Shown one piece after another: positions 4,590 through 37,350 of a stretch of DNA of 37,350 nt; the first letter of the stretch is position 1; each line of letters starts with the position of its first letter. Source of the stretch: a virus (taxonomy: Duplodnaviria > Caudoviricetes); IMG/VR virus record IMGVR_UViG_3300010222_000173, positions 1 to 37,350 of that record; one strand, 5' to 3'. The notes under the pieces are model-generated. The model was not told where the DNA came from. It saw only the letters and a program-made list of their open reading frames with translations, and did no database searches. A program made the translations under genes and the position numbers.

Positions 4590-5448
4590 AGTCGGCAAGA
4601 GCAGATTGGAGAATCTTGTCGAACTTTGTCGTGCCATCCTCGTCAGACTTTCGAAGGCTGCCGAGACTCTGAATTGTGCGGTTTGACTTCCACCAGTTGT
4701 CGGTCTTCAAGAGCCAGCCGAGAGTGATGCGTACGTCGTCTCGGCTGTAGCCGTCGAGGTTGACCACCTTCCGCAGAACATCTGCCCACTCGGAAGCGAT
4801 CTTCCCTCGTCGCTCCGACTTCAGTCGGCGGCGGTAGTGGCTGCTGAGCATCTCGTTGCGCTCCATCTGACCGAGTACCCATTCAGCGGCTACCCATCGC
4901 CAATCGTCTGGTAGATAGTCCCAGCGAACGGGGTGATCCTCGGGTAAGGGTTGAGCCTTCCAAGCGTCTCTAAAAACTGCGCTCTGCAGACGGTCGGGGA
5001 GCGTCGCATCAGCGGCGCTCACCCCTTTAGCACCTTCAAGGGGATTACCTTCAAGGGGATTACCTTTACTGGGGTACCCAAAATCTTGGGGGGGGTGGTA
5101 CCCAACTTTTTGGGTACCTAACTTTTTGGGGTCCCCAAAATCTTGGGGGGGGTCTTCCGTCTCTTCTTCCTCTTTGAGCGCGGTCAAATTCCAAGTGCTT
5201 GGTGGCGTTGTGCGATGTATATTTGTAGTGCCAGGGCGCCTCTCTCGCTTAACCATCGACGCGGATCGGAGGCTCTTTAGTGACTTCCTCAGCGTGGGCT
5301 CACTGACGCTTGTGTCGTCGCACATCTTCTCCAAAGACGCTGTGCATTCCCCTCGTCTTGAAATATGGCAAAACACGCGGAACTCATGCGGACTCAGGTC
5401 TGCATCGTCAAGTTTTGCCGGGATAAAAGGGGTGGGTGTGCTACTCAT
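4435..5448 (-). CDS. Phage replication initiator (N-terminal winged HTH)
   Basis: LSPHEFRVFCHI...SLEKMCDDTSVSEPTLRKSLKSL HTH; internal iteron cluster; C-terminal WW...IQSLGSLRK helical domain. Confidence 0.8.
   Translation of the reverse strand: MSSTPTPFIPAKLDDADLSPHEFRVFCHISRRGECTASLEKMCDDTSVSEPTLRKSLKSLRSASMVKRERRPGTTNIHRTTPPSTWNLTALKEEEETEDPPQDFGDPKKLGTQKVGYHPPQDFGYPSKGNPLEGNPLEGAKGVSAADATLPDRLQSAVFRDAWKAQPLPEDHPVRWDYLPDDWRWVAAEWVLGQMERNEMLSSHYRRRLKSERRGKIASEWADVLRKVVNLDGYSRDDVRITLGWLLKTDNWWKSNRTIQSLGSLRKSDEDGTTKFDKILQSALADYEQRHKQRTDPEAIRDGFAPSERDSGEPRPAGSTGDSIPDEQEVELSGFEW
5032..5153. repeat. Iteron cluster, putative replication origin
   Basis: ACCTTCAAGGGGATT x2 (5032-5061); CCCAAAATCTTGGGGGGGGT x2 (5077, 5134); GTACC(C/T)AACTTTTTGG x2 (5098-5129), all inside the initiator gene. 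Confidence 0.8.
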
Positions 5449-5491
5449 CAGAAAGATTCTCAACAGTGTTCAAGTCGCGTATGAGCTGTGG

Positions 5492-6379
5492 CTAAAAGGG
5501 AAGTGCCTCATCGTCCTCGAACGCCTCGTCGTTGGCCTCTCCGGATGCGGTGTCCACGTTCTCAGCCGCTTCCTTCACGTCGTCAGGGTCAACCTTCTGC
5601 GCTTCTTCCTCTGCCCCTTCTGCTTCTTGCTGGACGCGGTCGGCCTCGGCCGTTTTGAGGCGCTCAATCGTTTCCTCAGCCCACTCCTCAGGCCATTCAT
5701 CAAGGGGGTGATCCGAGGGCACCTTGCCTGCGTTCGATATGATGTCGGCGGCATCCGTGCCGTCCTGGACCTTTTGGACAAGCCAGTCGGACGCTTGCTG
5801 GTACCAGCCATCCGGCTTTCGCTGGATGACCTCACCGGTCTCGTAATCCACTTCTACCGATTGGGTGGCGCTGTTTGGGATGTCTTGTACCTCCGTCTCA
5901 TCAAGCCACCCAAGTCCAGCGAGGGAGAGGGTCACGCGCCGCTTCGCCTTCGTCTCGGCCTTCATGATGTCGTTGGCAAGATCTTGCCCGCTGGACCGGG
6001 ACGTATCCACAGCACCAGTCGCGACGTCCGTGCGGCCGTGTTCTGTCTTTGCGTAGGCCCGCACGACTAGGATGTCATCGCGCCATGTCTCTTCCATGTC
6101 TGTGATGGATATCCCATGGACGGACCGGAGCTGCTCCGCCGCGTCGCGCTTGGCGTACAGGGTGAGCTGGCCGTTGAGACGGATGTACTCGAATGGCTTC
6201 GTAAGAGGGTTCAGCCCGACCGACTCGCACACCTTGCGGTAGTAGTCAAGGCGCTGCTGAGGCGTGAGGTTGGACAAGTCCCCGTCTAGTAGCGCGTCCT
6301 CAACGCCCTCCACATCAGGGCGCTGCATCATTTCCCCGTTGCCTACGGCCTTCGCTGGTAGGGTCTCTGGATCTTCCAT
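5492..6379 (-). CDS. Bet/RecT-like single-strand annealing recombinase
   Basis: CESVGLNPLTKPFEYI and MKAETKAKRRVTLSLAGL motifs; acidic tail ending DDEALPF. Confidence 0.75.
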   Translation of the reverse strand: MEDPETLPAKAVGNGEMMQRPDVEGVEDALLDGDLSNLTPQQRLDYYRKVCESVGLNPLTKPFEYIRLNGQLTLYAKRDAAEQLRSVHGISITDMEETWRDDILVVRAYAKTEHGRTDVATGAVDTSRSSGQDLANDIMKAETKAKRRVTLSLAGLGWLDETEVQDIPNSATQSVEVDYETGEVIQRKPDGWYQQASDWLVQKVQDGTDAADIISNAGKVPSDHPLDEWPEEWAEETIERLKTAEADRVQQEAEGAEEEAQKVDPDDVKEAAENVDTASGEANDEAFEDDEALPF

Positions 6380-6401: not shown

Positions 6402-6492
6402 CGAGAACACGAGTGAATGCCGACGCCACCGCTCCTCTCGGTGACGTTTCGCGGTCTCTCTCGCCGCTCATCAGGGCTCATCAGGGCCACTC
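6402..6492 (-). ncRNA. Hammerhead ribozyme, type I topology
   Basis: Minus strand reads GCC-CUGAUGA-GCGG(loop)CCGC-GAAA-CGUCACCG(loop)CGGUGGCG-UC-GGC; complete core, three stems, GUC cleavage triplet. Confidence 0.9.
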
Positions 6493-8104: not shown

Positions 8105-8136
8105 AGGTGCTTGATAGTTGATGAGAGAGCATCGCG

Positions 8137-8168
8137 CCCCGCTTCGGCTGTGACCGAGGCGGGGTTTC
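8137..8168 (+). terminator. GC-rich hairpin, terminator-like on + strand (antisense to early operon)
   Basis: CCCCGCTTCGG-ctgtga-CCGAGGCGGGG followed by TTTC; G-U pair forms only on the + strand. Confidence 0.5.
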
Positions 8169-8437
8169 TGTATGTGTGCCCCGCTTTCATTCGGCGGCGC
8201 GGGGCAGGCCGCCTAACAGTCTCCCGCACTCTGCACACCGATATCGCTTGTCTTGTGTGTAGAATGCGAGTGTAGAGCGCCAGCGCTCGGTCATTCTCGT
8301 CCGACACCGCCGCGAGGAGGCGGCTGGCATGGTGTCGTGTCGGCGCCATGGAGGCCCTTGTCGGCAGGTGGCGCCACACCTGCCCGCGAGTGGCTGGTGT
8401 GGTTGGTGATTGAGTCAGTCGAAAAGCCATGTGGACA

Positions 8438-8893
8438 TCAGCTGCCAGTGGCCGCCATGCGGCGCCCCTCCGCGATAATCTCATCCCCCTCTTGCTTGAT
8501 CTCGCGCCCGATCTCGATCACGATGGATCGGTTGCCCGCCTCGTAGGCGTCCCAGAGGCGAGACTGTAGCTGGTCCAAGTCGCGGTTGTTGTCGGTGATC
8601 GTCCCAGTCACGGGCACCTCGTCGGACACGGGTGCGATGCGGTGGCCCTCGTCGACCGAGAGGCTGGCAAGGCGCGTGTATCCCTCTGAGGCGGCTTGCC
8701 GGGCGAGGCAGATCATCGTTCCGCCATCCGGGGTGCAGTCGCCTCGCTTCCACGCGCCAGCGGTGCTGGGCTTGATGTCTGCCCAGGCGCTGATGACGTA
8801 CCTAGCGCTTCGGCCCTCATCTTCGAGGTCGTGCCAGAGGCGCTGATATGCGTCGCGCCAAGCGGCTATGGGATCGGAGTCAGAAGTTGACAT
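8438..8893 (-). CDS. CII-like phage regulatory protein (HTH)
   Basis: ARYVISAWADIKPSTAGAWKRG HTH-like segment; second gene of the lytic early operon. Confidence 0.55.
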   Translation of the reverse strand: MSTSDSDPIAAWRDAYQRLWHDLEDEGRSARYVISAWADIKPSTAGAWKRGDCTPDGGTMICLARQAASEGYTRLASLSVDEGHRIAPVSDEVPVTGTITDNNRDLDQLQSRLWDAYEAGNRSIVIEIGREIKQEGDEIIAEGRRMAATGS

Positions 8894-8942
8894 AGATGTC
8901 GGAGCAACAGGTGGGTGAGTTGAGCGTGCATATCAGCAGAGC

Positions 8943-9104
8943 TTAGGCGGGGACAGTCTCATCTTCCCCTAGTATCAGCTCTCGGATATACTCGCTCATA
9001 GTCAAGTCCCTCTGAGCAGCTTGCACCCGAAGCTGTGTCTTCTCTTCACTGCTGAGCTTGACGTGTAGGTACTCATCACGCTCCCGCTTGTCAGTGCCTG
9101 GCAT
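8943..9104 (-). CDS. Ribbon-helix-helix DNA-binding protein in the Cro position
   Basis: YLHVKLSSEEKTQLRVQAAQRDLTMSEYIRELI = RHH (MobC/CopG/Arc-like); divergent from the repressor. Confidence 0.8.
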   Translation of the reverse strand: MPGTDKRERDEYLHVKLSSEEKTQLRVQAAQRDLTMSEYIRELILGEDETVPA

Positions 9105-9214
9105 GGCAGTTATGTTGCCTGTGATTACTGTCAACAATGCGTCTACGTACACACACTGTCTACAGAGTTGGTCCCTACTGTGTGTGTAGATAAAGTTAAT
9201 AACACACTGTTTGT
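9105..9214. promoter_or_regulatory. Divergent lysis/lysogeny switch region with operator-like repeats
   Basis: TACACACACTGT (9148-9159) inverted to ACTGTGTGTGTA (9177-9188), 11/12 match; ACACACTGT again at 9202-9210; AT-rich. Confidence 0.7.
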
Positions 9215-9892
9215 ATGACTGACACCATCCAGCGAAGTCCGGTTCAGGACGAAATCATAGAACTGGTTAGGAAGTCGGATGAGCCAGTCCAACCGAAAGA
9301 GATGGAAAACCAGCTCAATCGCTCGCGCAACAGCATCAATAGTGCTCTGCGCAAACTAAAAGACGTCGGGGATTTGAAGCAGCCCGGATACGGTCTTTAC
9401 GACCTACCGGAGCGGGTCGAAGACCAAGACAAACCAAAGGGGCAGCAGGAAAAATCTACCGAAAACGGCCCCGAAACTCTTCCATTACTTAATACGGAGG
9501 CCCACGCTTCGGAGAGCGGCGGGGCTTGGGAGATTGAGGTAGAAAGTTACATGAGCGTTGATCGAGACATTCTTCGGGCACAGTCCGGCGGGAATCCCGA
9601 CCAAATGGCGATCATGACGGTCCCTGGCAACCAGATGAAGGGCACGATCAACCCTGGCGACCAGATTATCATCATTCGTCACCAGGAAGGGGATCGAATT
9701 TTGCAGGGTGGTGTCTACGTGTGGCTAAACGAGCAGAGGGGCGTGCTGATTTACCGCGCAGTCTGGCAAGACGATGGGAGCCTCACGCTACGTCCAGACA
9801 ACGACGACTGCCCCAAGATCAACATCAACGAAATTGAGGCCCCCGCTTGGAGGCCAATCGGACGCGTTTTCAGAGTAATGAGAGCCCTGTGA
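9215..9892 (+). CDS. CI-like repressor: N-terminal winged HTH plus degenerate S24 peptidase-like domain
   Basis: VQPKEMENQLNRSRNSINSALRKL wHTH; VPGNQM..INPGD...LRPDN...IGRV S24 fold; catalytic Ser and Lys positions are Q and Y. Confidence 0.8.
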   Translation: MTDTIQRSPVQDEIIELVRKSDEPVQPKEMENQLNRSRNSINSALRKLKDVGDLKQPGYGLYDLPERVEDQDKPKGQQEKSTENGPETLPLLNTEAHASESGGAWEIEVESYMSVDRDILRAQSGGNPDQMAIMTVPGNQMKGTINPGDQIIIIRHQEGDRILQGGVYVWLNEQRGVLIYRAVWQDDGSLTLRPDNDDCPKININEIEAPAWRPIGRVFRVMRAL

Positions 9893-10341
9893 TGGAGACG
9901 GATGTGCAGACGGATATACAGAAGGAACTCCCGCTTCTCGATGAAAATGAGCTCGCAAAAGTTGCGGAGGGCAAGACGCCTCTTCCGCAGAGCGTAGATG
10001 AGCACATAGCGGTCGACAACAAGCTCATAGACACCATCGACGAAAGCCGACAGCAGGCCATTGCCCGCGTGCCGGGTGACTCGATGGCAGGAACCATTGC
10101 CGCAGAAGACCGCGTAGTGATAGAGATAGAAGAGGGGTGTCAGATCATGCAGGGAGCGGTCTACATGTGGGCCAATGGCCAGGGTGGCGTAATCATCATG
10201 CGAGCGCACTGGGTGGATGCGCGGACTGTGCGCCTCGTGCCTGACAATGACGACTATCCAGTCATTGAGCTAGAGGGGGATCGCGACAGCTGGGCGTGGA
10301 CCTGCATTGCCCGCGTGACGCAGGTGTTGAGCGGGGTATGA
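9892..10341 (+). CDS. Stand-alone S24-like domain protein, paralog of the repressor C-terminal domain
   Basis: TGATG overlap; VPGDSM...LVPDNDDYP...IARV; Lys position is M; no HTH. Confidence 0.8.
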   Translation: METDVQTDIQKELPLLDENELAKVAEGKTPLPQSVDEHIAVDNKLIDTIDESRQQAIARVPGDSMAGTIAAEDRVVIEIEEGCQIMQGAVYMWANGQGGVIIMRAHWVDARTVRLVPDNDDYPVIELEGDRDSWAWTCIARVTQVLSGV

Positions 10342-10463
10342 CTCGCGCCGGGCATTTGGAACGGCTGCCAGTATTGCCGTTGAGGCATTCGGTCGAGACC
10401 GGATCTCGTTTGAGGAAAGTAGTCCTGTCTTTGCACTCAAAACCCCACTTCTAGACTACTGGC

Positions 10464-10967
10464 ATGACCTTTCTTCTCATTGCCGCTTTCTTTTGGCTGG
10501 GCTTCTCGTTCCTGCTCGGTTTGGCAGCTGCTGGCTTCAACCGGAGCGGGATACTGTTCTTTGTGATCTCGCTAGTCGTTAGCCCGGTACTTGCTGGACT
10601 GTTGCTGCTTGCCTTGGGTAAGAAAGATAAAGACGGCCAGACGGTTCGGGTTCGGTGTCCGGAATGTGGTGCGACGACGAAAGAAGGAGGACGGTACTGC
10701 TCAGGGTGTGGACGTGAGTTCCCGGCCTCACAACAGACAGCTCAACCGCAAGCGTCGGAAAAAGGCGCTGAAAAGGCACATCTCTCGACGGTGGGAGTCC
10801 TGCTCATGTTGGCGATCAGCTTCCTTTTCGCGCTTAGCGGCGCATACATGGGGACTCACCTTGAAGCGGTTCACCGAGCAGTGGGGCTGGTTGGGGGTAG
10901 TGGGATTGGCTTCTTACTTGGCTATAGCACGAAGTGGGTCTTTCCAAGTCAAATGACAACTGCTTGA
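10464..10967 (+). CDS. Membrane protein with double zinc ribbon
   Basis: Four hydrophobic segments flanking CPECG...CSGCG. Confidence 0.8.
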   Translation: MTFLLIAAFFWLGFSFLLGLAAAGFNRSGILFFVISLVVSPVLAGLLLLALGKKDKDGQTVRVRCPECGATTKEGGRYCSGCGREFPASQQTAQPQASEKGAEKAHLSTVGVLLMLAISFLFALSGAYMGTHLEAVHRAVGLVGGSGIGFLLGYSTKWVFPSQMTTA

Positions 10968-11039
10968 TTATTCACCCACCTCAGTTCCGGGTCGCCTCGT
11001 CGCCGCAGAGCCCGATGTTGATCGTGGCGTAGGTTCTTC

Positions 11040-11105
11040 TGTGAAGAAAGAATAAACCTCCATGGCCAATGAAACCCTATTAGTTTCGTATAGTGTAATG
11101 GGGTG
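11040..11105 (+). promoter_or_regulatory. Promoter/operator copy A
   Basis: TGTGAAG...GAAACCCTATTAGTTTC palindrome (11071-11087), 3 nt, then TAGTGTAATGGGGTG; near-identical copy 1000 bp downstream. Confidence 0.7.
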
Positions 11106-11166
11106 CACAAACGGAGAGGAGGCGCGCCCCGACACGTTCGCTACCAACGAGAAACCACACAGAAAC

Positions 11167-11631
11167 ATGACTGATACTCAAGTTTCCCATGTCCCTTCGA
11201 TTCCGAGTGCTCGTGAGATTCGCGAGAAAGTGCGGGAAGTGCAGTTGAATTGTCGAAAACGCCTTTTGGACGAATGGCAGTTCGAGCGCGCCTATGCTTG
11301 CTTGCAGGTCTTGAAGAGCCATGCGGATCATGAGGCTGTGAGAGATGCTCGTGTTCGCCTTTATCCTGATGGCGAAGAGCGTGGCGGATATAGCTACGAC
11401 GGCACGCACTGCATCATTCGTTTACGTGACGGCGAGTGGAAAATTGACACCTATCGTAGTGGCACGCATGATCGGATGACAAAAGATGTAGCTGCGATCC
11501 TTGAGGTGCCTGTCTCTGACTCTGAAGATCCTGAGGCGGCCCGTGAGCTTCGAGAACACCTCAAGTCCGAGGGATGGGCAAAAGGTTCTGGATCAGAAAT
11601 GCGGATCTACACTGGCGACATGAGCCAGTAA
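11167..11631 (+). CDS. Hypothetical protein (cassette A cargo)
   Basis: 154-aa ORF from ATG 11167, downstream of promoter A. Confidence 0.7.
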   Translation: MTDTQVSHVPSIPSAREIREKVREVQLNCRKRLLDEWQFERAYACLQVLKSHADHEAVRDARVRLYPDGEERGGYSYDGTHCIIRLRDGEWKIDTYRSGTHDRMTKDVAAILEVPVSDSEDPEAARELREHLKSEGWAKGSGSEMRIYTGDMSQ

Positions 11632-11632
11632 C

Positions 11633-11683
11633 GAAAAACGCCCCGCACCGACCTGTCAGCGCAGGTGCGGGCGGGGCATTTTC
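11633..11683. terminator. Bidirectional terminator-like hairpin
   Basis: AAAAACGCCCCGC...GCGGGGCATTTT. Confidence 0.65.
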
Positions 11684-11714
11684 ATCGCTACCAACGACAT
11701 AAACTCCAAAAGCC

Positions 11715-12026
11715 ATGAAAAAATATTGGTCCATAGAGAGGCTCCAAGAGACTGCGACAACCCTTTACGAGAAGACAGCTGACCAAGAGGGCACACAGAA
11801 ACTCGTGGTTGAGACCATCAACGACAATCGCGAAAGCATCGGCCTTGACCGCGTGACAAGGCAGGCCGTACAGAAGGCAGTGCGTGAAGGGGGGCGATCC
11901 AACGTGCGTCTCCTCTGCGATATCGTAGATGCGCTTTGGCCTCAGATGCAGAGCGTGAAGCGAAATGGCGTGCAGCCTGTTCTGCACGTAGAAGTTTCTG
12001 ACCCTCAGGATCACACGGAGTCATAA
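11715..12026 (+). CDS. Putative HTH protein (last gene of cassette A)
   Basis: TQKLVVETIN...VTRQAVQKAVREG..NVRLLCDIVDAL resembles an XRE-type HTH with an extended turn. Confidence 0.55.
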   Translation: MKKYWSIERLQETATTLYEKTADQEGTQKLVVETINDNRESIGLDRVTRQAVQKAVREGGRSNVRLLCDIVDALWPQMQSVKRNGVQPVLHVEVSDPQDHTES

Positions 12027-12040
12027 ACCCGATCCCTCTT

Positions 12041-12105
12041 TGTGAAGGAATGTGAAGATGCTCACTACACGAAACCAATAGGGTTTCTTTTAGTGTAATG
12101 GAGTG
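12041..12105 (+). promoter_or_regulatory. Promoter/operator copy B
   Basis: TGTGAAG x2, GAAACCAATAGGGTTTC palindrome (12071-12087), 3 nt, then TAGTGTAATGGAGTG. Confidence 0.7.
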
Positions 12106-12181
12106 AAGAAGAGGGAGGGGGCGAGACGGGGCAGACGGCGAAAGCCACTCACTGACTCCTCATTCAGAGATACACAGAGCC

Positions 12182-12691
12182 ATGAGACGCGCCGACACCT
12201 CAGACCTCAAGTGGTACGACGAAGGCGGCTTCAACGTGAGCCGCATCATGACGGAGGCTCACATGCTGGCCTCTACAAACGCCGAGTTCGGACGCGCGGA
12301 CTACGCTGAGTACCTCAGTGAAGCGCTCCAGCAGCAGTGGGAAATGGCGAAAGAGTCCCGTGATGCCGTGAAGCGAGCCGGCGGCCCTGACGCGGTCCGC
12401 GACAAGGAAGAGCGCCGTCAGCAGAAGAAGAAGCAGAATGAAGCCAAGAAGGCGGCCGAAAAGTACGGTAACAAGAAGCGCCGCCTGGTGCTCTACGACG
12501 ACCGCAAGGCCGCGAAGGACGCGCTGGACGGGGACCAGGTCTTCGACGGCTTCGGCAAGACATGGCGCGCCGACGCGGACACGCCTTCGCTCCACGGCTC
12601 GCAGTGGCTAGGCTACGAGGGCCGAAAGGTGTGCTACATGTACTACTACAAGGTGGACGATGCCGCACTGGACGAGATGGCTGCTGCGTAG
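12182..12691 (+). CDS. Hypothetical protein (cassette B cargo 1)
   Basis: Strong G/C-ending codon bias; N-terminal 'NVSRIMTEAH...EALQQQWEMAK' helical module. Confidence 0.8.
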   Translation: MRRADTSDLKWYDEGGFNVSRIMTEAHMLASTNAEFGRADYAEYLSEALQQQWEMAKESRDAVKRAGGPDAVRDKEERRQQKKKQNEAKKAAEKYGNKKRRLVLYDDRKAAKDALDGDQVFDGFGKTWRADADTPSLHGSQWLGYEGRKVCYMYYYKVDDAALDEMAAA

Positions 12692-12765
12692 TATCGTCGA
12701 AACGACAGCTTACCAACGTAAGGGGCGGGGCTCCTCATCAGCATACACTCAACCCCTACAGACCT

Positions 12766-13179
12766 ATGACTGACGAAAGCACTCTTCAGAAGCTCGACGC
12801 AAGCACGGACTCCCTCTACATCGACGCCGTCCGGGAGCGGTGCAAACTCATCGCCACTTACGACGCGCCGGCTGGCTTGCTCCAGAAGGATGAGCAGGAG
12901 GTCGAGGTCTACGCTCATCCCTCTGAGGAAAAGGCCTACGTGATCCACGAGGCGGGTGGTCTGATGGAAGAAGAAGTGCTTCTTATCCCATCCAGCCGCA
13001 TCACCTGGATCGAGCCGCTAATGGATGAGCTCGGCGTGGAGGACGATCACGCCACGCGCAACGAGAGCCCTGATGAGGCCCTGAGCGCCTCCAGTAAGGT
13101 AGCCGGAGGGCTTATGCGCGAGTCGATTGAGCAAAGCGGCCTCAAGGCTGATGTCCTGGAGGCCTGGTCCGACGAGTAG
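12766..13179 (+). CDS. Acidic hypothetical protein (cassette B cargo 2)
   Basis: ATG 12766; 137 aa, D/E-rich. Confidence 0.7.
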   Translation: MTDESTLQKLDASTDSLYIDAVRERCKLIATYDAPAGLLQKDEQEVEVYAHPSEEKAYVIHEAGGLMEEEVLLIPSSRITWIEPLMDELGVEDDHATRNESPDEALSASSKVAGGLMRESIEQSGLKADVLEAWSDE

Positions 13180-13218
13180 TGCCCTGCATCTGCAGGGATA
13201 GGCCGCACGGGTGGCGAC

Positions 13219-13265
13219 AAAAAGCCCCGCCTGCCCTGGCGGAATGCCAGGGTGGGTCGGGGCTT
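13219..13265. terminator. Long hairpin before HTH gene
   Basis: AAGCCCCGCCTGCCCTGGC-ggaat-GCCAGGGTGGGTCGGGGCTT. Confidence 0.65.
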
Positions 13266-13298
13266 ACTGACTCCTCATCAGCAAAGACCTATACCTCC

Positions 13299-13523
13299 AT
13301 GTCCGAAATACGATCCCGGATCAAGCTCCGTGAGCTTTCGACCGAGCTGGAAAAGGCTCTGGGCGATGCTGACCTCTCCCAGCGCGACCTGGCGGCGCGC
13401 CTCGACGTCACACCCCGCCACCTGCGGCGTGCCCGAAAGGGCGGTTATCCTGAGATGGCCGCGAGGGCACTTCGTGAGCTGGGGTACGAGGTAGAGCTGT
13501 ATGCCGAGGTAGAGGCGCCGTAA
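13299..13523 (+). CDS. XRE-family HTH protein (last gene of cassette B)
   Basis: LSQRDLAARLDVTPRHLRRARKG....ARALRELGYEVEL. Confidence 0.85.
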   Translation: MSEIRSRIKLRELSTELEKALGDADLSQRDLAARLDVTPRHLRRARKGGYPEMAARALRELGYEVELYAEVEAP

Positions 13524-13610
13524 TCCCTTAGGTGATATCTTGTGAACATCTACCCTTGCGAACATCCATCTTATGTGGTAGTATGTGTAGTGGCTGGTGC
13601 TATTACATAG

Positions 13611-13766
13611 ATGACAGAGTTATTTGAGCGCGTACGGCACCACCTTCGTCGGCTTTGGGGCGCGGAGATAGACGAGATTCGGATCGAGCGAAAGCCGAGC
13701 GGAAAGATCCACATTGTAACGACGACTGAAGAAAGCCACGAGGCGCACGAGGCGCGTCGTGGGTGA
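13611..13766 (+). CDS. 51-aa leader ORF of the late/lysis operon
   Basis: MTELFERVRHHLRRLWGAEIDEIRIERKPSGKIHIVTTTEESHEAHEARRG, read directly; followed by a terminator. Confidence 0.6.
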   Translation: MTELFERVRHHLRRLWGAEIDEIRIERKPSGKIHIVTTTEESHEAHEARRG

Positions 13767-13794
13767 GGGCACATATGACCTTGACCAGCGCATG

Positions 13795-13842
13795 AGGCGC
13801 CTGGACCCGACACCTGCTCGGGGCTGGGCGCCTTTTCTTTTT
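13795..13842 (+). terminator. Rho-independent terminator upstream of endolysin
   Basis: AGGCGCCTGG..CCGA-loop-TCGGG..CTGGGCGCCT followed by TTTCTTTTT. Confidence 0.8.
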
Positions 13843-13876
13843 GCTTAAATTTGCATCGACTTACGCTTACACAGAC

Positions 13877-14443
13877 ATGGATGTCGCCATTGTAATCGGC
13901 CATCACCCGGATGCGCCCGGAGCATCGATGCGGATGGGGTGCCATGAAATACATGAACACGGCTTTTGGCGACCTTTCGCTCACGAATTGGCTACAAGCG
14001 TCGTGGCGCGGGATCTGACGCCTCACGTGATTGAGCGCCCAAACGAAGACCCTGATGAGGCGCTGGCTCAAAAAGTCAACGAAACCGGTGCCGACGCAGC
14101 GATTGAACTTCATTTTAACGCCGCTGGCCGATCTGCAAGGGGTGGCACAGAGATGATACACTACCCAGGATCAGAGGGGGGGGAGGCACTAGCTGAGCAG
14201 ATGCAGAGCCGAACGGTGGATGCTCTTGGCCTAGAAAATCGCGGATTGATCACAAGGAGGTGGCCCTTCCTTAAGCTTACAGAGATGCCAGCAGTTATCG
14301 CTGAGCCGTTTTTCGGGTCAAATGAAGAGGACGTCGCGCGAGCGCTCCCCCGACTGCCATCGCTTCAGAAAGCCTACAGGCATGCCTTGGCTACCTTTTG
14401 CGACTTGCACCGAGCTGGCGCTGAATGGGCAGGAGGGGTGTAG
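13877..14443 (+). CDS. Endolysin, N-acetylmuramoyl-L-alanine amidase (Amidase_3)
   Basis: VIGHH, E, IELHFNA, MPAVIAEPFF zinc-amidase motifs. Confidence 0.92.
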   Translation: MDVAIVIGHHPDAPGASMRMGCHEIHEHGFWRPFAHELATSVVARDLTPHVIERPNEDPDEALAQKVNETGADAAIELHFNAAGRSARGGTEMIHYPGSEGGEALAEQMQSRTVDALGLENRGLITRRWPFLKLTEMPAVIAEPFFGSNEEDVARALPRLPSLQKAYRHALATFCDLHRAGAEWAGGV

Positions 14444-14444
14444 T

Positions 14445-14684
14445 ATGGAGCGACAACCACCAAAAATCGGAGTGCCGATTCTGGATAACTTGCTTGCGGC
14501 GACATGGGCAGCCTTAGCGGCCGCAAATTTTTGGGTGACACCGTCGGTTTTTGCGAACATCTCAGTCGGGATCGGCGCCTTGGCAACGCTGCTTCTCACC
14601 CTCCTGAGGGTGTACGAGCACCTGGTGGGGGAGACGGTTAGCGAGACGCTTTCGACCGATTCTAGCACAGGTCGTAACCTATGA
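14445..14684 (+). CDS. Putative holin
   Basis: Two TM helices; directly after the endolysin. Confidence 0.6.
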   Translation: MERQPPKIGVPILDNLLAATWAALAAANFWVTPSVFANISVGIGALATLLLTLLRVYEHLVGETVSETLSTDSSTGRNL

Positions 14685-14905
14685 AAAAGCAAGTGCCAAA
14701 TGTCATCGAGTACCTACGCGAGCGCAGGTGGATAGGTGAGGCTGGCGTTGGGTTTTTGGTGGCCGTTTTGGTCGGCTTCCCGATTCAGATCACCGCTCCG
14801 GCCGCTTCGGTATGGGAGGTGCCCCTTTCGCTTGTCTGGGGCGCTGGGGCTGGGCTGGGGGCTTTCCTGATCAGTGCCAGTCTTCAGCTAATCCAAAAAC
14901 GATGA
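14681..14905 (+). CDS. Putative holin/antiholin membrane protein
   Basis: Two TM helices; ATGA overlaps on both sides. Confidence 0.6.
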   Translation: MKKQVPNVIEYLRERRWIGEAGVGFLVAVLVGFPIQITAPAASVWEVPLSLVWGAGAGLGAFLISASLQLIQKR

Positions 14906-16350
14906 ATTCAGCCTTAAACTACGTCGCTGAGCTGGAGGAGGAGACGATCCGTGAGGTGCATTCCGGGGAGATTGCTAGAACTGTTCTTTCAAATACTGCC
15001 CAAGAGAGAGGCTTCCCGAAAAAAGCCGGGGAGCTTGCTCATCGCCTCATCCGAGCCCACGAGAATATCGAGGCGTTCATCGCCTTCTACTATGATGGCG
15101 TGAGCCACGCGATGGACGCGTCTGATAGCCCTGAGGTCGACGGCAATGTCGCTGATGTGACGGTCAAGTATCCGCATGGCCGGCCGGTTCGGGGGTTGAG
15201 TCGCCTCATGCGCGACCATGACGAGGATCCGGGAGAGTGGGAGGTGGAATCTCTGGAGGTCAATGAGTGGCCCACAACGATCGGCGCGGAGGAGGGCGTG
15301 ATCTACGTCAACAACTTCCAAGCAAAAGCCCGCCTCTCACGTAAGACTCGGGAGCCTCAGTACGAGCGCGTACGGCCAGTCGAGGTGGACGCGCCACCGA
15401 CGCCCGACATTGAGACGGCTGAACGCCACCGGCCAGAAGGGTGGAAGACAGGCCTCATCATCATGGATCGCCAGACCGGCCACCGCCGAGGTGAGCAATC
15501 GTGGACCTATGACACGATTCACGACCGCGAAGCGATTGACCTTGCTGTGCAGGTGGCCGCAAAAGCCAAGCCCGAAGTGATCGTAGATGTGGGTGACATT
15601 TTGGATTTTGCGGGAGTGAGCTCATACGTCGGGACGCCTGACCTCAAGCGCTCCCTCCAACCTGCGATCTGCGAGGCGGCTTACGATAACGCGAGGCTCG
15701 CGAGCGCCGCCCAGCCGGAGGAGTTCCATATACTGGAGGGCAACCACGACCAAAGGCTAAATGAGAAGCTTTTGGAGGACGCGCGGGAGATGTATCAACT
15801 GCGCGAGGCGGAGGCGCAAATGAACGGCGGCCCGCCTGCGATGTCGGTGCCTGCTCTGCTCAACTTGTCGGACGCCGGCATTGAATGGCATGCTGGGTAT
15901 CCAGATAACGAACTGCTGCTCAACGATGGCCTTGCGATCGAGCACGGCGACACGGCGAAAAGTGAGAGCGGTGGCACGGTGCGGTACCTCCACAAGTACG
16001 AGATATCAGACTATAGCCGCATTTTCGGGCACATCCACCGGCACGAGCTCGCGTGGACGACCAAATGGAAGGGCTCCGAGAGCCGCGAGCTCTGCGCTGC
16101 GTCCGGTGGGTGCCTGTGCCGGGTGGATAAGGGTGCCGTGCCCGGCAAAAAGGGACGGCAGAACTGGCAGCAAGGCTTGATCCTCTGCCACTACGACCCT
16201 CAGGGGTGGGAGCACGTCATTGAGCCAGTGCGGATTCGACCGGACACCCGCTCTGGCGCGAGTGAGTGCTGGTTCCGAGGCGAGCGTTTGCGGGCGGATC
16301 CGCCGACTGCCCAAGAGCTGAGCCACGCAACTGGATTTAACTTTACATAA
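14902..16350 (+). CDS. Calcineurin-like metallophosphoesterase with N-terminal extension
   Basis: DRQ, VGDILD, EGNHD, EHG, FGHIH motifs. Confidence 0.88.
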   Translation: MNSALNYVAELEEETIREVHSGEIARTVLSNTAQERGFPKKAGELAHRLIRAHENIEAFIAFYYDGVSHAMDASDSPEVDGNVADVTVKYPHGRPVRGLSRLMRDHDEDPGEWEVESLEVNEWPTTIGAEEGVIYVNNFQAKARLSRKTREPQYERVRPVEVDAPPTPDIETAERHRPEGWKTGLIIMDRQTGHRRGEQSWTYDTIHDREAIDLAVQVAAKAKPEVIVDVGDILDFAGVSSYVGTPDLKRSLQPAICEAAYDNARLASAAQPEEFHILEGNHDQRLNEKLLEDAREMYQLREAEAQMNGGPPAMSVPALLNLSDAGIEWHAGYPDNELLLNDGLAIEHGDTAKSESGGTVRYLHKYEISDYSRIFGHIHRHELAWTTKWKGSESRELCAASGGCLCRVDKGAVPGKKGRQNWQQGLILCHYDPQGWEHVIEPVRIRPDTRSGASECWFRGERLRADPPTAQELSHATGFNFT

Positions 16351-36087: not shown

Positions 36088-37350
36088 CTAGAAAAGATCC
36101 TCGTGCTGCTCGTCCAGCTCTTCGTCTCGGATTGAGCGGAGGTAGTGTTCTGTTGTCGACAGGTCTTTGTGATCAAGCGCCGCATTGATCTCTTGGATCG
36201 ACCAGCCCGCATCCAGCATCCGCTGGGCAGCCGAGTGCCTCGCCACGTGCGTCGAGAGCTTGACGTCGAGGCCTGCCGCTTTCTGTATCTCCTTCAGCTC
36301 TTGATTAACGCGACGGTTCGTCTTCCGAATCGCAGATCCAATCCCAGCCTTGGTATTCCAATCTTCCTCGCGGGCATATAGCCGGAAGAACGGAAAGACA
36401 AAGCGCGTGTCCGGAGGGCGGTAATAGTCAAGAATATCAGCAGCCTTGGGCACGATTTTCAGGTCTTTCTGTGCACCTGTCTTCCGCATCTGATACTTGA
36501 TCCTACCGACCCTAGCCTGATCCCATTCGAGGCTAGAGACATCAGACCAACGCATTCCAAGCATGTAGAGGGCCAAGAGCCACGCCCGCAAGGCGTGAGA
36601 CGGAAGCCCCCCATCCACGAACCGAGATTCGCCTGCCTCGATCTGCTCTCGTAGTTCTTCGAGCCTGCTTATTCCGCTGGCTCCAAGCGGCGTCTTGCCT
36701 GTCCGCTCGCGGCGGAGCGTCACATCGTCGAAGGGATACTCTGCTTTTGGGAAGAGGTTGTCCCGGATCGCCATGTTGACCACGCGCCTCACCACGCGCA
36801 TCGTCTTGTGGATGGTGTTGATCGAGTTGCCTCGCTCTTCTGACTCCCATGTCATGTACTCCTCTAAAAGCGAAGGAGTAACTTGCAGTGGCGAGAGTTC
36901 AATGTCCTCTACCCCACGGGTTTGCCCCAAAAACTCCCTCCACTTGGACACGGCTGTCATGTGACTGCGACGGGTGCCAGCGTTATCGTACTCTGTCTGG
37001 ATGCGGTCCTCGGCGTAGTCCAAGAGGCCCTCCTTTCCTACAGGATCGTCGCCCGGAGCGAGTTCATCCTCAACCGCCGCCTTGAGGCGGTCAGCAGTGA
37101 TGCGCCGGGGGCTGGCCCTCAAGGAGGTGAGGGCGTCTTGCGCCTTCGACTCAATCCGGCGCAGGGCGCTGTTGATCTCTCCGTGTTTGCGGTGTCCACG
37201 CGTCACCGAGTCCCCACGCCAGTAGTTTCTGTCTACTTTGAGGTCGGTGGTCAGGAACCTCTGCTCAGATTTGTGTTCAATACGGATGCGCACTTTGCTT
37301 AGGCCGTCCGTGTCGGTGCGCTTTCGGCACTGGAGTGATACGGATGCCAT
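36088..37350 (-). CDS. int: Tyrosine integrase (arm-binding + SAM-like + catalytic domains)
   Basis: GMRWSD (R), RKTG (K), HVARHS (HxxR), LDH...TTEHY (H, Y). Confidence 0.96.
   Translation of the reverse strand: MASVSLQCRKRTDTDGLSKVRIRIEHKSEQRFLTTDLKVDRNYWRGDSVTRGHRKHGEINSALRRIESKAQDALTSLRASPRRITADRLKAAVEDELAPGDDPVGKEGLLDYAEDRIQTEYDNAGTRRSHMTAVSKWREFLGQTRGVEDIELSPLQVTPSLLEEYMTWESEERGNSINTIHKTMRVVRRVVNMAIRDNLFPKAEYPFDDVTLRRERTGKTPLGASGISRLEELREQIEAGESRFVDGGLPSHALRAWLLALYMLGMRWSDVSSLEWDQARVGRIKYQMRKTGAQKDLKIVPKAADILDYYRPPDTRFVFPFFRLYAREEDWNTKAGIGSAIRKTNRRVNQELKEIQKAAGLDVKLSTHVARHSAAQRMLDAGWSIQEINAALDHKDLSTTEHYLRSIRDEELDEQHEDLF

Follow-up and report, generated by a model that had tools for sequence, protein, structure and literature searches.

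Do the two neighbouring runs of small genes at positions 11040 to 13523 of a salt-rock phage genome make up an anti-defence locus, and what holds their parts together? The window analysed here is an entire virus record (IMG/VR IMGVR_UViG_3300010222_000173; 37,350 bases) and belongs to a temperate tailed phage. A first-pass annotation of this DNA had described the two runs as twin operons resembling acr-aca anti-defence loci, each with an upstream TGTGAAG, a palindrome, one or two small open reading frames (ORFs), a GC-rich hairpin, and a terminal helix-turn-helix (HTH) gene, and all of these elements were found where it had placed them. Our favoured explanation, which we consider probable, is that they are two portable phage expression cassettes in which a conserved frame carries exchangeable small cargo genes and is self-repressed in an acr-aca-like manner. 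By sequence comparison the frame, consisting of upstream element, promoter, leader repeats, hairpin, and terminal HTH gene, recurs in unrelated viruses with unrelated cargo.

A frame that recurs with unrelated cargo

The small HTH gene that closes the first cassette, H1, ends an operon with varying upstream genes in all four independent lineages for which genomic context is at hand: the window, L016, L013, and the tailless Salisaeta icosahedral phage 1 (SSIP-1; NC_017983), with L016 and L015 (99.8% alike) counted as one lineage and L013 and L012 (92% alike) as another. The expectation that cargo should vary beside the HTH gene was thus borne out for H1, since unrelated cargo precedes the H1 homolog in four independent lineages. 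In L016, an unrelated tailed phage, the homolog (69%) ends a co-oriented run of small unknown genes; the cassette, inserted between head-morphogenesis-like and scaffold-like genes (both named by eye), comprises a promoter and leader 73% alike over 142 nt, cargo of 81 and 156 aa, the hairpin, the H1 homolog, and a terminator-like hairpin. The insertion presumably resembles the position of the Pseudomonas acr-aca1 locus. L013 is likewise an unrelated tailed phage, in which the homolog (50%) ends a run of 75-, 104-, 179-, and 332-aa genes that has a related promoter and converges on a portal-like gene; upstream of this operon, a perfect TTGACA-17-TATAAT promoter (L013 822-844) drives another run of small unknown genes. 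In SSIP-1, ORF20 (YP_006383713.1), annotated as hypothetical, stands behind ORFs 16-19, the promoter has its upstream element 54 bp before TATAAT, and one further HTH gene follows ORF20.

No match to the window cargo was found at the L016, L013, or SSIP-1 loci by tblastn or blastp; the blastp cargo comparison was made without two L013 cargo genes and with one L014 gene misframed, and tblastn covered these loci for the window cargo. L014, a closer relative that shares cI, S24, and terminase with the window phage, has different genes, another XRE protein, and another palindrome at this slot. At 11590-15467 it has a further promoter-cargo-XRE unit, whose own palindrome lies near 12460, plus more unknown genes.

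The elements of the two window cassettes, in order of position, are the following.

11040-11046, plus strand: upstream element TGTGAAG of promoter 1, 54 bp before the -10-like hexamer
11071-11087, no strand: palindrome 1, GAAAC-N7-GTTTC, the likely H1 operator, with its left arm at the -35 position
11094-11099, plus strand: predicted -10-like hexamer TGTAAT of promoter 1, 17 bp after GAAACC
11139-11150, plus strand: leader repeat CGCTACCAACGA before cargo 1, with a second copy at 11686-11697 before H1
11167-11631, plus strand: cargo 1, 154 aa, no family; G+C fraction at third codon positions 0.51, the lowest among the 32 window ORFs measured
11640-11677, no strand: GC-rich hairpin before H1, with an A-run on its 5' side
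11715-12026, plus strand: H1, 103 aa, predicted four-helix lambda-repressor-type HTH protein and likely autorepressor
12041-12057, plus strand: upstream elements of promoter 2, TGTGAAG twice (12041 and 12051), 10 bp apart
12071-12087, no strand: palindrome 2, the reverse complement of palindrome 1, with outer arms CACTA/TAGTG extending to 12063-12095
12094-12099, plus strand: predicted -10-like hexamer TGTAAT of promoter 2
12151-12167, plus strand: cassette-2 leader repeat ACTGACTCCTCAT(T)CAG, with further copies at 12731-12741 and 13266-13281
12182-12691, plus strand: cargo 2, 169 aa, with one relative (42%) and a weak lead to Phage_Gp111-like viral proteins
12766-13179, plus strand: cargo 3, 137 aa, acidic (isoelectric point 4.2), no family
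13222-13265, no strand: GC-rich hairpin before H2, kept in a second contig with different genes on both sides
13299-13523, plus strand: H2, 74-aa XRE-type HTH protein

The two units had been read as sharing one architecture, which holds for the twinned promoter block, but the units are not copies of each other. Because H1 and H2 are unrelated and the leader repeats differ, we regard them as two different frames with a common promoter type. The twin 31-mers are identical at 23 of 31 positions, the next-best place in the window reaching 18; a same-arm palindrome pair with this degree of likeness arose in 0 of 2,000 shuffles of 10901-13700 and in 0 of 200 whole-window shuffles. In the window, GAAAC-N7-GTTTC with at most one mismatch occurs only at the two palindromes. 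Overlooked earlier was the inverted relation of the two sites, site 2 being site 1 in reverse complement down to its 7-bp spacer, within a 28-nt inverted repeat (89%). TAGTGTAATGG stands at both 11091 and 12091. Sites homologous to palindrome 1 lie in L016 (5012) and L013 (2741), TGTGAAG 53-54 bp upstream is also found at site 2, in L016, and in SSIP-1 and is degenerate in L013, and the 17-bp spacing from GAAACC to the -10 is the same in all five aligned promoters. A sigma-70 scan of the window detected neither promoter, and neither has a sigma-70 consensus. Scans of DNA for the promoter pattern gave 11 viral, 111 viral, and 11 metagenome matches, chance by context except for L015/L016, and blastn of 8400-14500 against phage records gave no match.

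Leader repeats precede each of the cassette genes. CGCTACCAACGA, also overlooked earlier, is found before both genes of cassette 1, L016 has three near-identical copies of this type of leader, one ahead of every gene, and (ACTGA)CTCCTCAT(T)CAG stands ahead of all three genes of cassette 2. The window leaders showed no more folding than shuffled sequence did (z -0.97 and 0.46), and their sequences are too few for covariation. A reading of the CTCCTCATCAG leaders as reverse-strand hammerheads was ruled out, as the core is not completed. The hairpins fold with z -4.6 (11640-11677) and -4.4 (13222-13265), with 0 of 200 shuffles as good. That at 11640-11677, also present before the H1 homolog in L016 and in contigs from halite, is terminator-like on the minus strand and likely an attenuator on the plus strand. 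Just beyond the cassettes, the stretch 13540-13766 holds a third TTGTGAA-type element together with an 11-bp direct repeat, ahead of a conserved 51-aa ORF and the lysis genes; in halite variants TTTGTGAAG stands here. The stretch is possibly a late or accessory promoter, or a target of H2.

The halite contigs, which come from two other studies, hold parts of the frame beside different sequence. One aligns over hairpin, leader, and H1 (215 nt, 29 differences) and has 522 nt of different sequence upstream, another has the site-1 flank joined to the cassette-2 leader via 42 different letters, and in a 29.6-kb contig the cassette-2 leader and the start of H2 are separated by 2,539 different letters. 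The cargo genes had no coverage in the two halite runs, a gap that was given no weight. A halite contig also spans 11905-12133 with four differences, so that palindrome 2 is contiguous with the 3' end of H1. The contexts of H2 are known from contig fragments only.

H1, H2, and the palindrome

The annotation of H1 as an HTH gene stands as a predicted fold; Pfam, PHROGs, and NCBIfam gave neither an HTH match nor any family assignment, and judged by sequence H1 is a small unclassified family. Its model has four helices (predicted local distance difference test, pLDDT, 78; residues 80-103 poor). Structural matches include YdaT (Z 6.9, root-mean-square deviation, rmsd, 2.4 over 72), the MuB N-domain (Z 5.9), and POU domains (5.3-6.0), while those to Aca7 (Z 5.0, rmsd 3.0 over 69) and Aca11 (Z 4.8) are generic fold matches. 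Lambda-repressor-type HTH domains make up most of the top structural rows, and the class is assigned because these rows agree, despite middling scores. Close relatives of H1 number 11 (64-81%). Six rows came from a profile search against 1.84 billion representatives; five of them look real, and the search added four plausible relatives to the close ones. The sole named relative is SSIP-1 ORF20 (32%, E 2e-4). P0021, an unrelated repeat protein, was dropped as a relative, a weak and partial H1-like match in a Gaiellales bin among genome contigs was not used, and a scan of metagenome contigs confirmed 0 of 360 candidates.

H2 has an ordinary XRE fold (model pLDDT 83; XRE folds at Z 6-7.7), a weak Pfam HTH_3 match (E 6e-4, below the curated cut-off), and five relatives at 81-92%; its likeness to Aca10 (Z 5.6, rmsd 2.5 over 54) is one of fold only. 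Searches for the genomic context of H2 relatives gave a single 21-residue match, which was not used. Relatedness between H1 and H2 was not detectable by hhalign (probability 0.45%), and neither matched PDB sequences, solved Acas included, under E 0.09. Structure prediction, which the first-pass annotation had proposed together with Foldseek, gave predicted HTH folds for both regulators; the Foldseek search with the H1 model returned nothing at E 0.001.

Each HTH protein had been supposed to own its copy of the palindrome. This was not supported, as the L016 and L013 fragments show the palindrome and H1 and no H2. Because of these two phage fragments, H1 is the likely binder of both window palindromes, and it likely represses both promoters. 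GAAAC-N7-GTTKC occurs once per record, at the operon promoter, in both searched records with the H1 helix RQAVQKA, and in neither of two others, SSIP-1 and the cI-sharing relative without a detected H1. In SSIP-1 the predicted recognition helix is QPSVALA, and a perfect palindrome, TATAGCC-N5-GGCTATA, lies over spacer and -10. Aligned on the left arm, five promoters, that of SSIP-1 included, read G-n-AAC-n, 17 bp, T-n-TA, and the four promoters from the three genomes with helix RQAVQKA all retain the right arm GTT(T/G)C. Within the 17-bp spacer of these four, invariant columns number 4 of 5 in the right arm versus 1 of 12 elsewhere (Fisher p 0.01), which is indicative only, as the sequences are related. 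The inverted repeat inside the predicted core promoter is conserved, and in these few cases the palindrome follows the predicted recognition helix of H1. The cI repressor was rejected as the binder, as the motif is absent from 43 kb of a relative that shares cI (61%), the record of which is 55% complete. H2 is part of the second frame and likely binds another site; we speculate that the extra symmetry at 12051-12066 and 12063-12095 could serve it.

Cargo, mechanism, and competing explanations

The sizes first given for the cargo ORFs (154; 169 and 137 aa) are correct, and the statement that none is recognisable as a known Acr agrees with general library scans. The three window cargo proteins have no family in Pfam, PHROGs, NCBIfam, PADLOC, or PDB sequences, and no toxin or defence family was matched. 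No usable fold for cargo 1 or cargo 2 came out of the Atlas searches, the score of cargo 2 to Gp111-like viral proteins being 0.86-0.88, below the bar of 0.9. By eye, all three proteins look soluble. The idea that cargo 3 is a DNA mimic was rejected, as capsid and other window proteins are equally acidic. Cargo 3 was found in 0 of 6 candidate viral contigs, and neither cargo 2 nor its relative was found in phage records. The 104-aa cargo of L013 (3184-3499) has relatives in three phage and seven plasmid records, all hypothetical, and members of its family occur on mobile elements from Bacillota, Alphaproteobacteria, Campylobacterota, and archaea; in the three contexts examined, no known acr lies near these relatives.

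Under the favoured explanation, host RNA polymerase would fire the promoter on naked incoming DNA, giving an early burst in which cargo would be made first, and partial read-through past the hairpin would yield less H1. An H1 dimer would then cover the -35 and spacer, shutting the promoters off as Aca proteins do; Aca1 and Aca2 are described as binding inverted repeats as dimers (PMC8633003). The leader repeats may be crossover points for cargo exchange, by analogy with the PeSL (promoter early stem-loop) cassettes of T4-type phages (PMC2839356).

Most likely, the cargo acts on the host early in infection. That it does so as counter-defence is our leading but tentative guess, made because of the layout, the CRISPR-spacer-like matches to this phage, and the hammerhead-like RNAs among the cargo of relatives, and an Acr role in the strict sense is unlikely. 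The spacer-like matches (33-35 nt, to 10653-10687 and 10064-10096, in contigs of runs X1 and X3) have CRISPR-repeat-like flanks of two different repeats, which look like type I-E; one run may be the source of the window. A bolder version would make H1 the founding Aca-like regulator of a counter-defence cassette family of tailed and tailless Salinibacter/Salisaeta-type viruses, fired by a host extracytoplasmic function (ECF) sigma factor, swapping cargo at leader repeats, cut by hammerheads into RNAs of one gene each in some members, and carrying a dozen unrelated cargo genes, among them the first salt-adapted bacterial anti-CRISPR or anti-defence proteins; we regard this whole as doubtful.

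Several points weigh against the portable, self-repressed cassette. Binding and repression by H1 are predicted, from helix-palindrome co-variation. There are only four independent H1 loci, three of which the helix-operator link needs, and related promoters share letters by descent. The L013 site has a weak -10 match (TGTAGG) and lacks perfect 5-bp arms, and in SSIP-1 the nearby HTH genes ORF15 and ORF21 could own its palindrome. The fold scores of H1 (Z 5-7) lie within the range usual for small helical proteins, and its Foldseek search, as noted, was empty. Among the halite contigs, the joint in the 29.6-kb contig is the weaker one, with a short side of 28 letters against a bar of 30, and in one contig the hairpin is not directly followed by H1. 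A known Acr or anti-defence family was matched by 0 of 3 window cargo and 0 of 10 cargo of the H1-bearing relatives; this comparison used Pfam, PHROGs, and NCBIfam for all 13 and PDB sequences for the window cargo, which are general libraries rather than Acr-dedicated ones. Finally, the window cassettes follow cI on the same strand, and L014 fills the slot with lysogen-type accessory genes.

The last point leads to the strongest alternative, that the cassettes are morons expressed from the lysogen, with H1 tuning steady prophage expression and the cargo protecting the lysogen (superinfection exclusion or defence) or aiding the host. The window phage is temperate (integrase, cI), its cassettes share a strand with cI, S24, and a membrane gene, which they follow, and L014 has other accessory genes in this slot; moreover, SSIP-1 carries an integrase too, and in a Lactobacillus phage the genes for lysin and integrase flank a relative of one L013 cargo. 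However, in L016 the same frame lies within the head genes and in L013 next to a portal-like gene, the window cargo look soluble and gave 0 of 3 PADLOC matches, and a repressor site on the core promoter suits shut-off better than steady expression. We consider morons rather unlikely.

A second alternative takes the palindrome as mainly a promoter signal, its left arm being the -35 of a host ECF sigma factor and its symmetry serving a host regulator or H2. All five promoters, SSIP-1 included, have G-n-AAC at -35, 17 bp before T-n-TA. Because AAC is invariant at this position, an ECF sigma is suggested: AAC at -35 is described as a mark of ECF promoters (PMC6767563), and the sigma-70 scan misses both sites. 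Cassette 2, moreover, ends in H2 and yet has the same palindrome. The left arm may thus be an ECF-sigma element, which we offer as a lead; the perfect TATAAT of SSIP-1 fits sigma-70 equally. A promoter signal leaves unexplained the selective conservation of the right arm and its loss exactly where the H1 helix changes, the L016 and L013 fragments show palindrome and H1 and no H2, and H1 could bind even if an ECF sigma factor uses the left arm. This alternative is improbable.

Toxin-first toxin-antitoxin pairs, with the cargo as toxin and the HTH protein as antitoxin and repressor in an order that we liken to HigBA, are very improbable. The best folds for H2 do include HicB3 (Z 7.7, rmsd 2.5, 62 aligned), the HipB of a HipT system, and other HipB proteins, but all of them are generic XRE folds on a par with phage repressors. 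H1 is kept while the preceding gene changes completely, a hairpin lies between cargo and HTH gene, and there is neither a toxin family match nor a fixed partner. Least credible of all is that the palindromes are recombination sites inverting the 1-kb segment with cargo 1 and H1: the reverse-complementary sites with their shared spacer and 28-nt inverted repeat would suit inversion, but the single site of L016 has a self-symmetric spacer, descent from a longer palindrome explains the match, both promoters face in one direction, and no recombinase was found other than the integrase some 23 kb further along. Contigs of three runs show no strand-change joint, contigs being prone to drop rare forms.

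Known systems, hammerhead-like RNAs, and the phage

The portable cassettes resemble acr-aca operons (Aca1-Aca14) in their small variable genes, terminal small HTH gene, core-promoter inverted repeat, and one regulator plausibly covering a neighbouring operon. In known Acas, the inverted repeat is described as lying within the core promoter (PMC9410906), and one Aca can control neighbouring operons, according to section 22 of PMC13551039. They differ in several respects: no solved Aca matches H1 in sequence, there is no linked known acr, the promoter departs from the sigma-70 consensus, every gene has a leader repeat in front of it, and relatives have hammerhead-like ribozymes between cargo genes. 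Because no acr is recognisable, the cassettes cannot be filed as an acr-aca operon. PeSL cassettes likewise have repeated regulatory sequences around non-essential genes and may drive shuffling; as described, however, they are composite sigma-70 promoter-terminator units in many copies and without a repressor gene (PMC2839356), whereas the window has two promoters, a hairpin before the regulator, and leader repeats of 12-17 nt. For archaeal viruses, too, a conserved promoter is reported to mark candidate early anti-defence genes and Aca-like regulators (PMC11065993), but promoters and hosts there are archaeal and cargo is validated, while ours is candidate. SSIP-1 ORF20 has the same operon layout and upstream-element spacing as H1, with another recognition helix, palindrome, and cargo, in a tailless virus.

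As judged by titles and abstract openings, we found no description of an Aca-type marker for Salinibacter-type hosts. The main text of PMC13551039 has no mention of Salinibacter, Rhodotherm-, halophil-, or Bacteroid-, nor have eight AcaFinder supplement files, and by title nothing was found on SSIP-1 hammerheads or ORF20. What we regard as new are H1 as a family with its operator, the host group concerned, the occurrence in both tailed and tailless viruses, and the ribozymes. Both HTH genes had been proposed as Aca-like markers for halophile phages; H1 plus operator is usable for Salinibacter-type viruses, while H2 is not linked to the palindrome. Most anti-CRISPRs were found via guilt-by-association with Aca proteins. 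H1, its operator, and the TGTGAAG-54 bp-(-10) promoter similarly form a search handle, which names 13 candidate cargo in four virus lineages, and one of these, SSIP-1 on Salisaeta, is a cultured virus with a cultured host.

Type I hammerhead-like RNAs lie between cargo genes in L016 (5351-5406) and SSIP-1 (L141; 3443-3508 and 3866-3926). Our own descriptor (conserved core and three stems) gave three matches in 108,595 bases versus 0 in 60 shuffles, cleavage being predicted only. The L016 copy and the second SSIP-1 copy satisfy it, and the first SSIP-1 copy fails through a stem II mismatch; Rfam gave no hammerhead at E 1 and nothing credible. The descriptor scan found none in the two window cassettes. 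Hammerheads of phages and mobile elements are likewise described between genes of polycistronic RNA, with one set flanking the anti-restriction gene ardA and with examples from salterns (PMC3088659); here they differ in lying inside the H1-regulated cassettes of L016 and SSIP-1. Elsewhere in the window, a type I hammerhead-like element lies on the minus strand at 6415-6481 in the early leftward arm, upstream of a 295-aa ORF (5492-6379), with a predicted cut after 6422; L014 retains its core and stem II near 5460.

The phage is read as temperate from its integrase (36088-37350) and cI-like repressor. Upstream of the cassettes are the leftward early arm, a ribbon-helix-helix gene (8943), the cI-like repressor (9215), a free S24 domain (9847), and a membrane protein (10464), and downstream follow amidase, terminase, portal, capsid, and tail genes. 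We infer a host of the Salinibacter/Salisaeta kind because the best-ranked matches of the integrase fall in Bacteroidota elements, the majority of window proteins are acidic, related DNA is found in halite runs, and the sole named H1 relative belongs to a Salisaeta virus. The stand-alone S24 domain is paralogous to the cI-like repressor that it follows (9215-10341), and this tandem is kept in L014 (61% and 77%). Two adjoining GCCCCGC hairpins in the early arm (8136-8205) have stems similar to those of the cassette hairpins. Within the replication initiator gene, two 27-nt direct repeats (5070-5096 and 5127-5153; 96%) are likely origin iterons.

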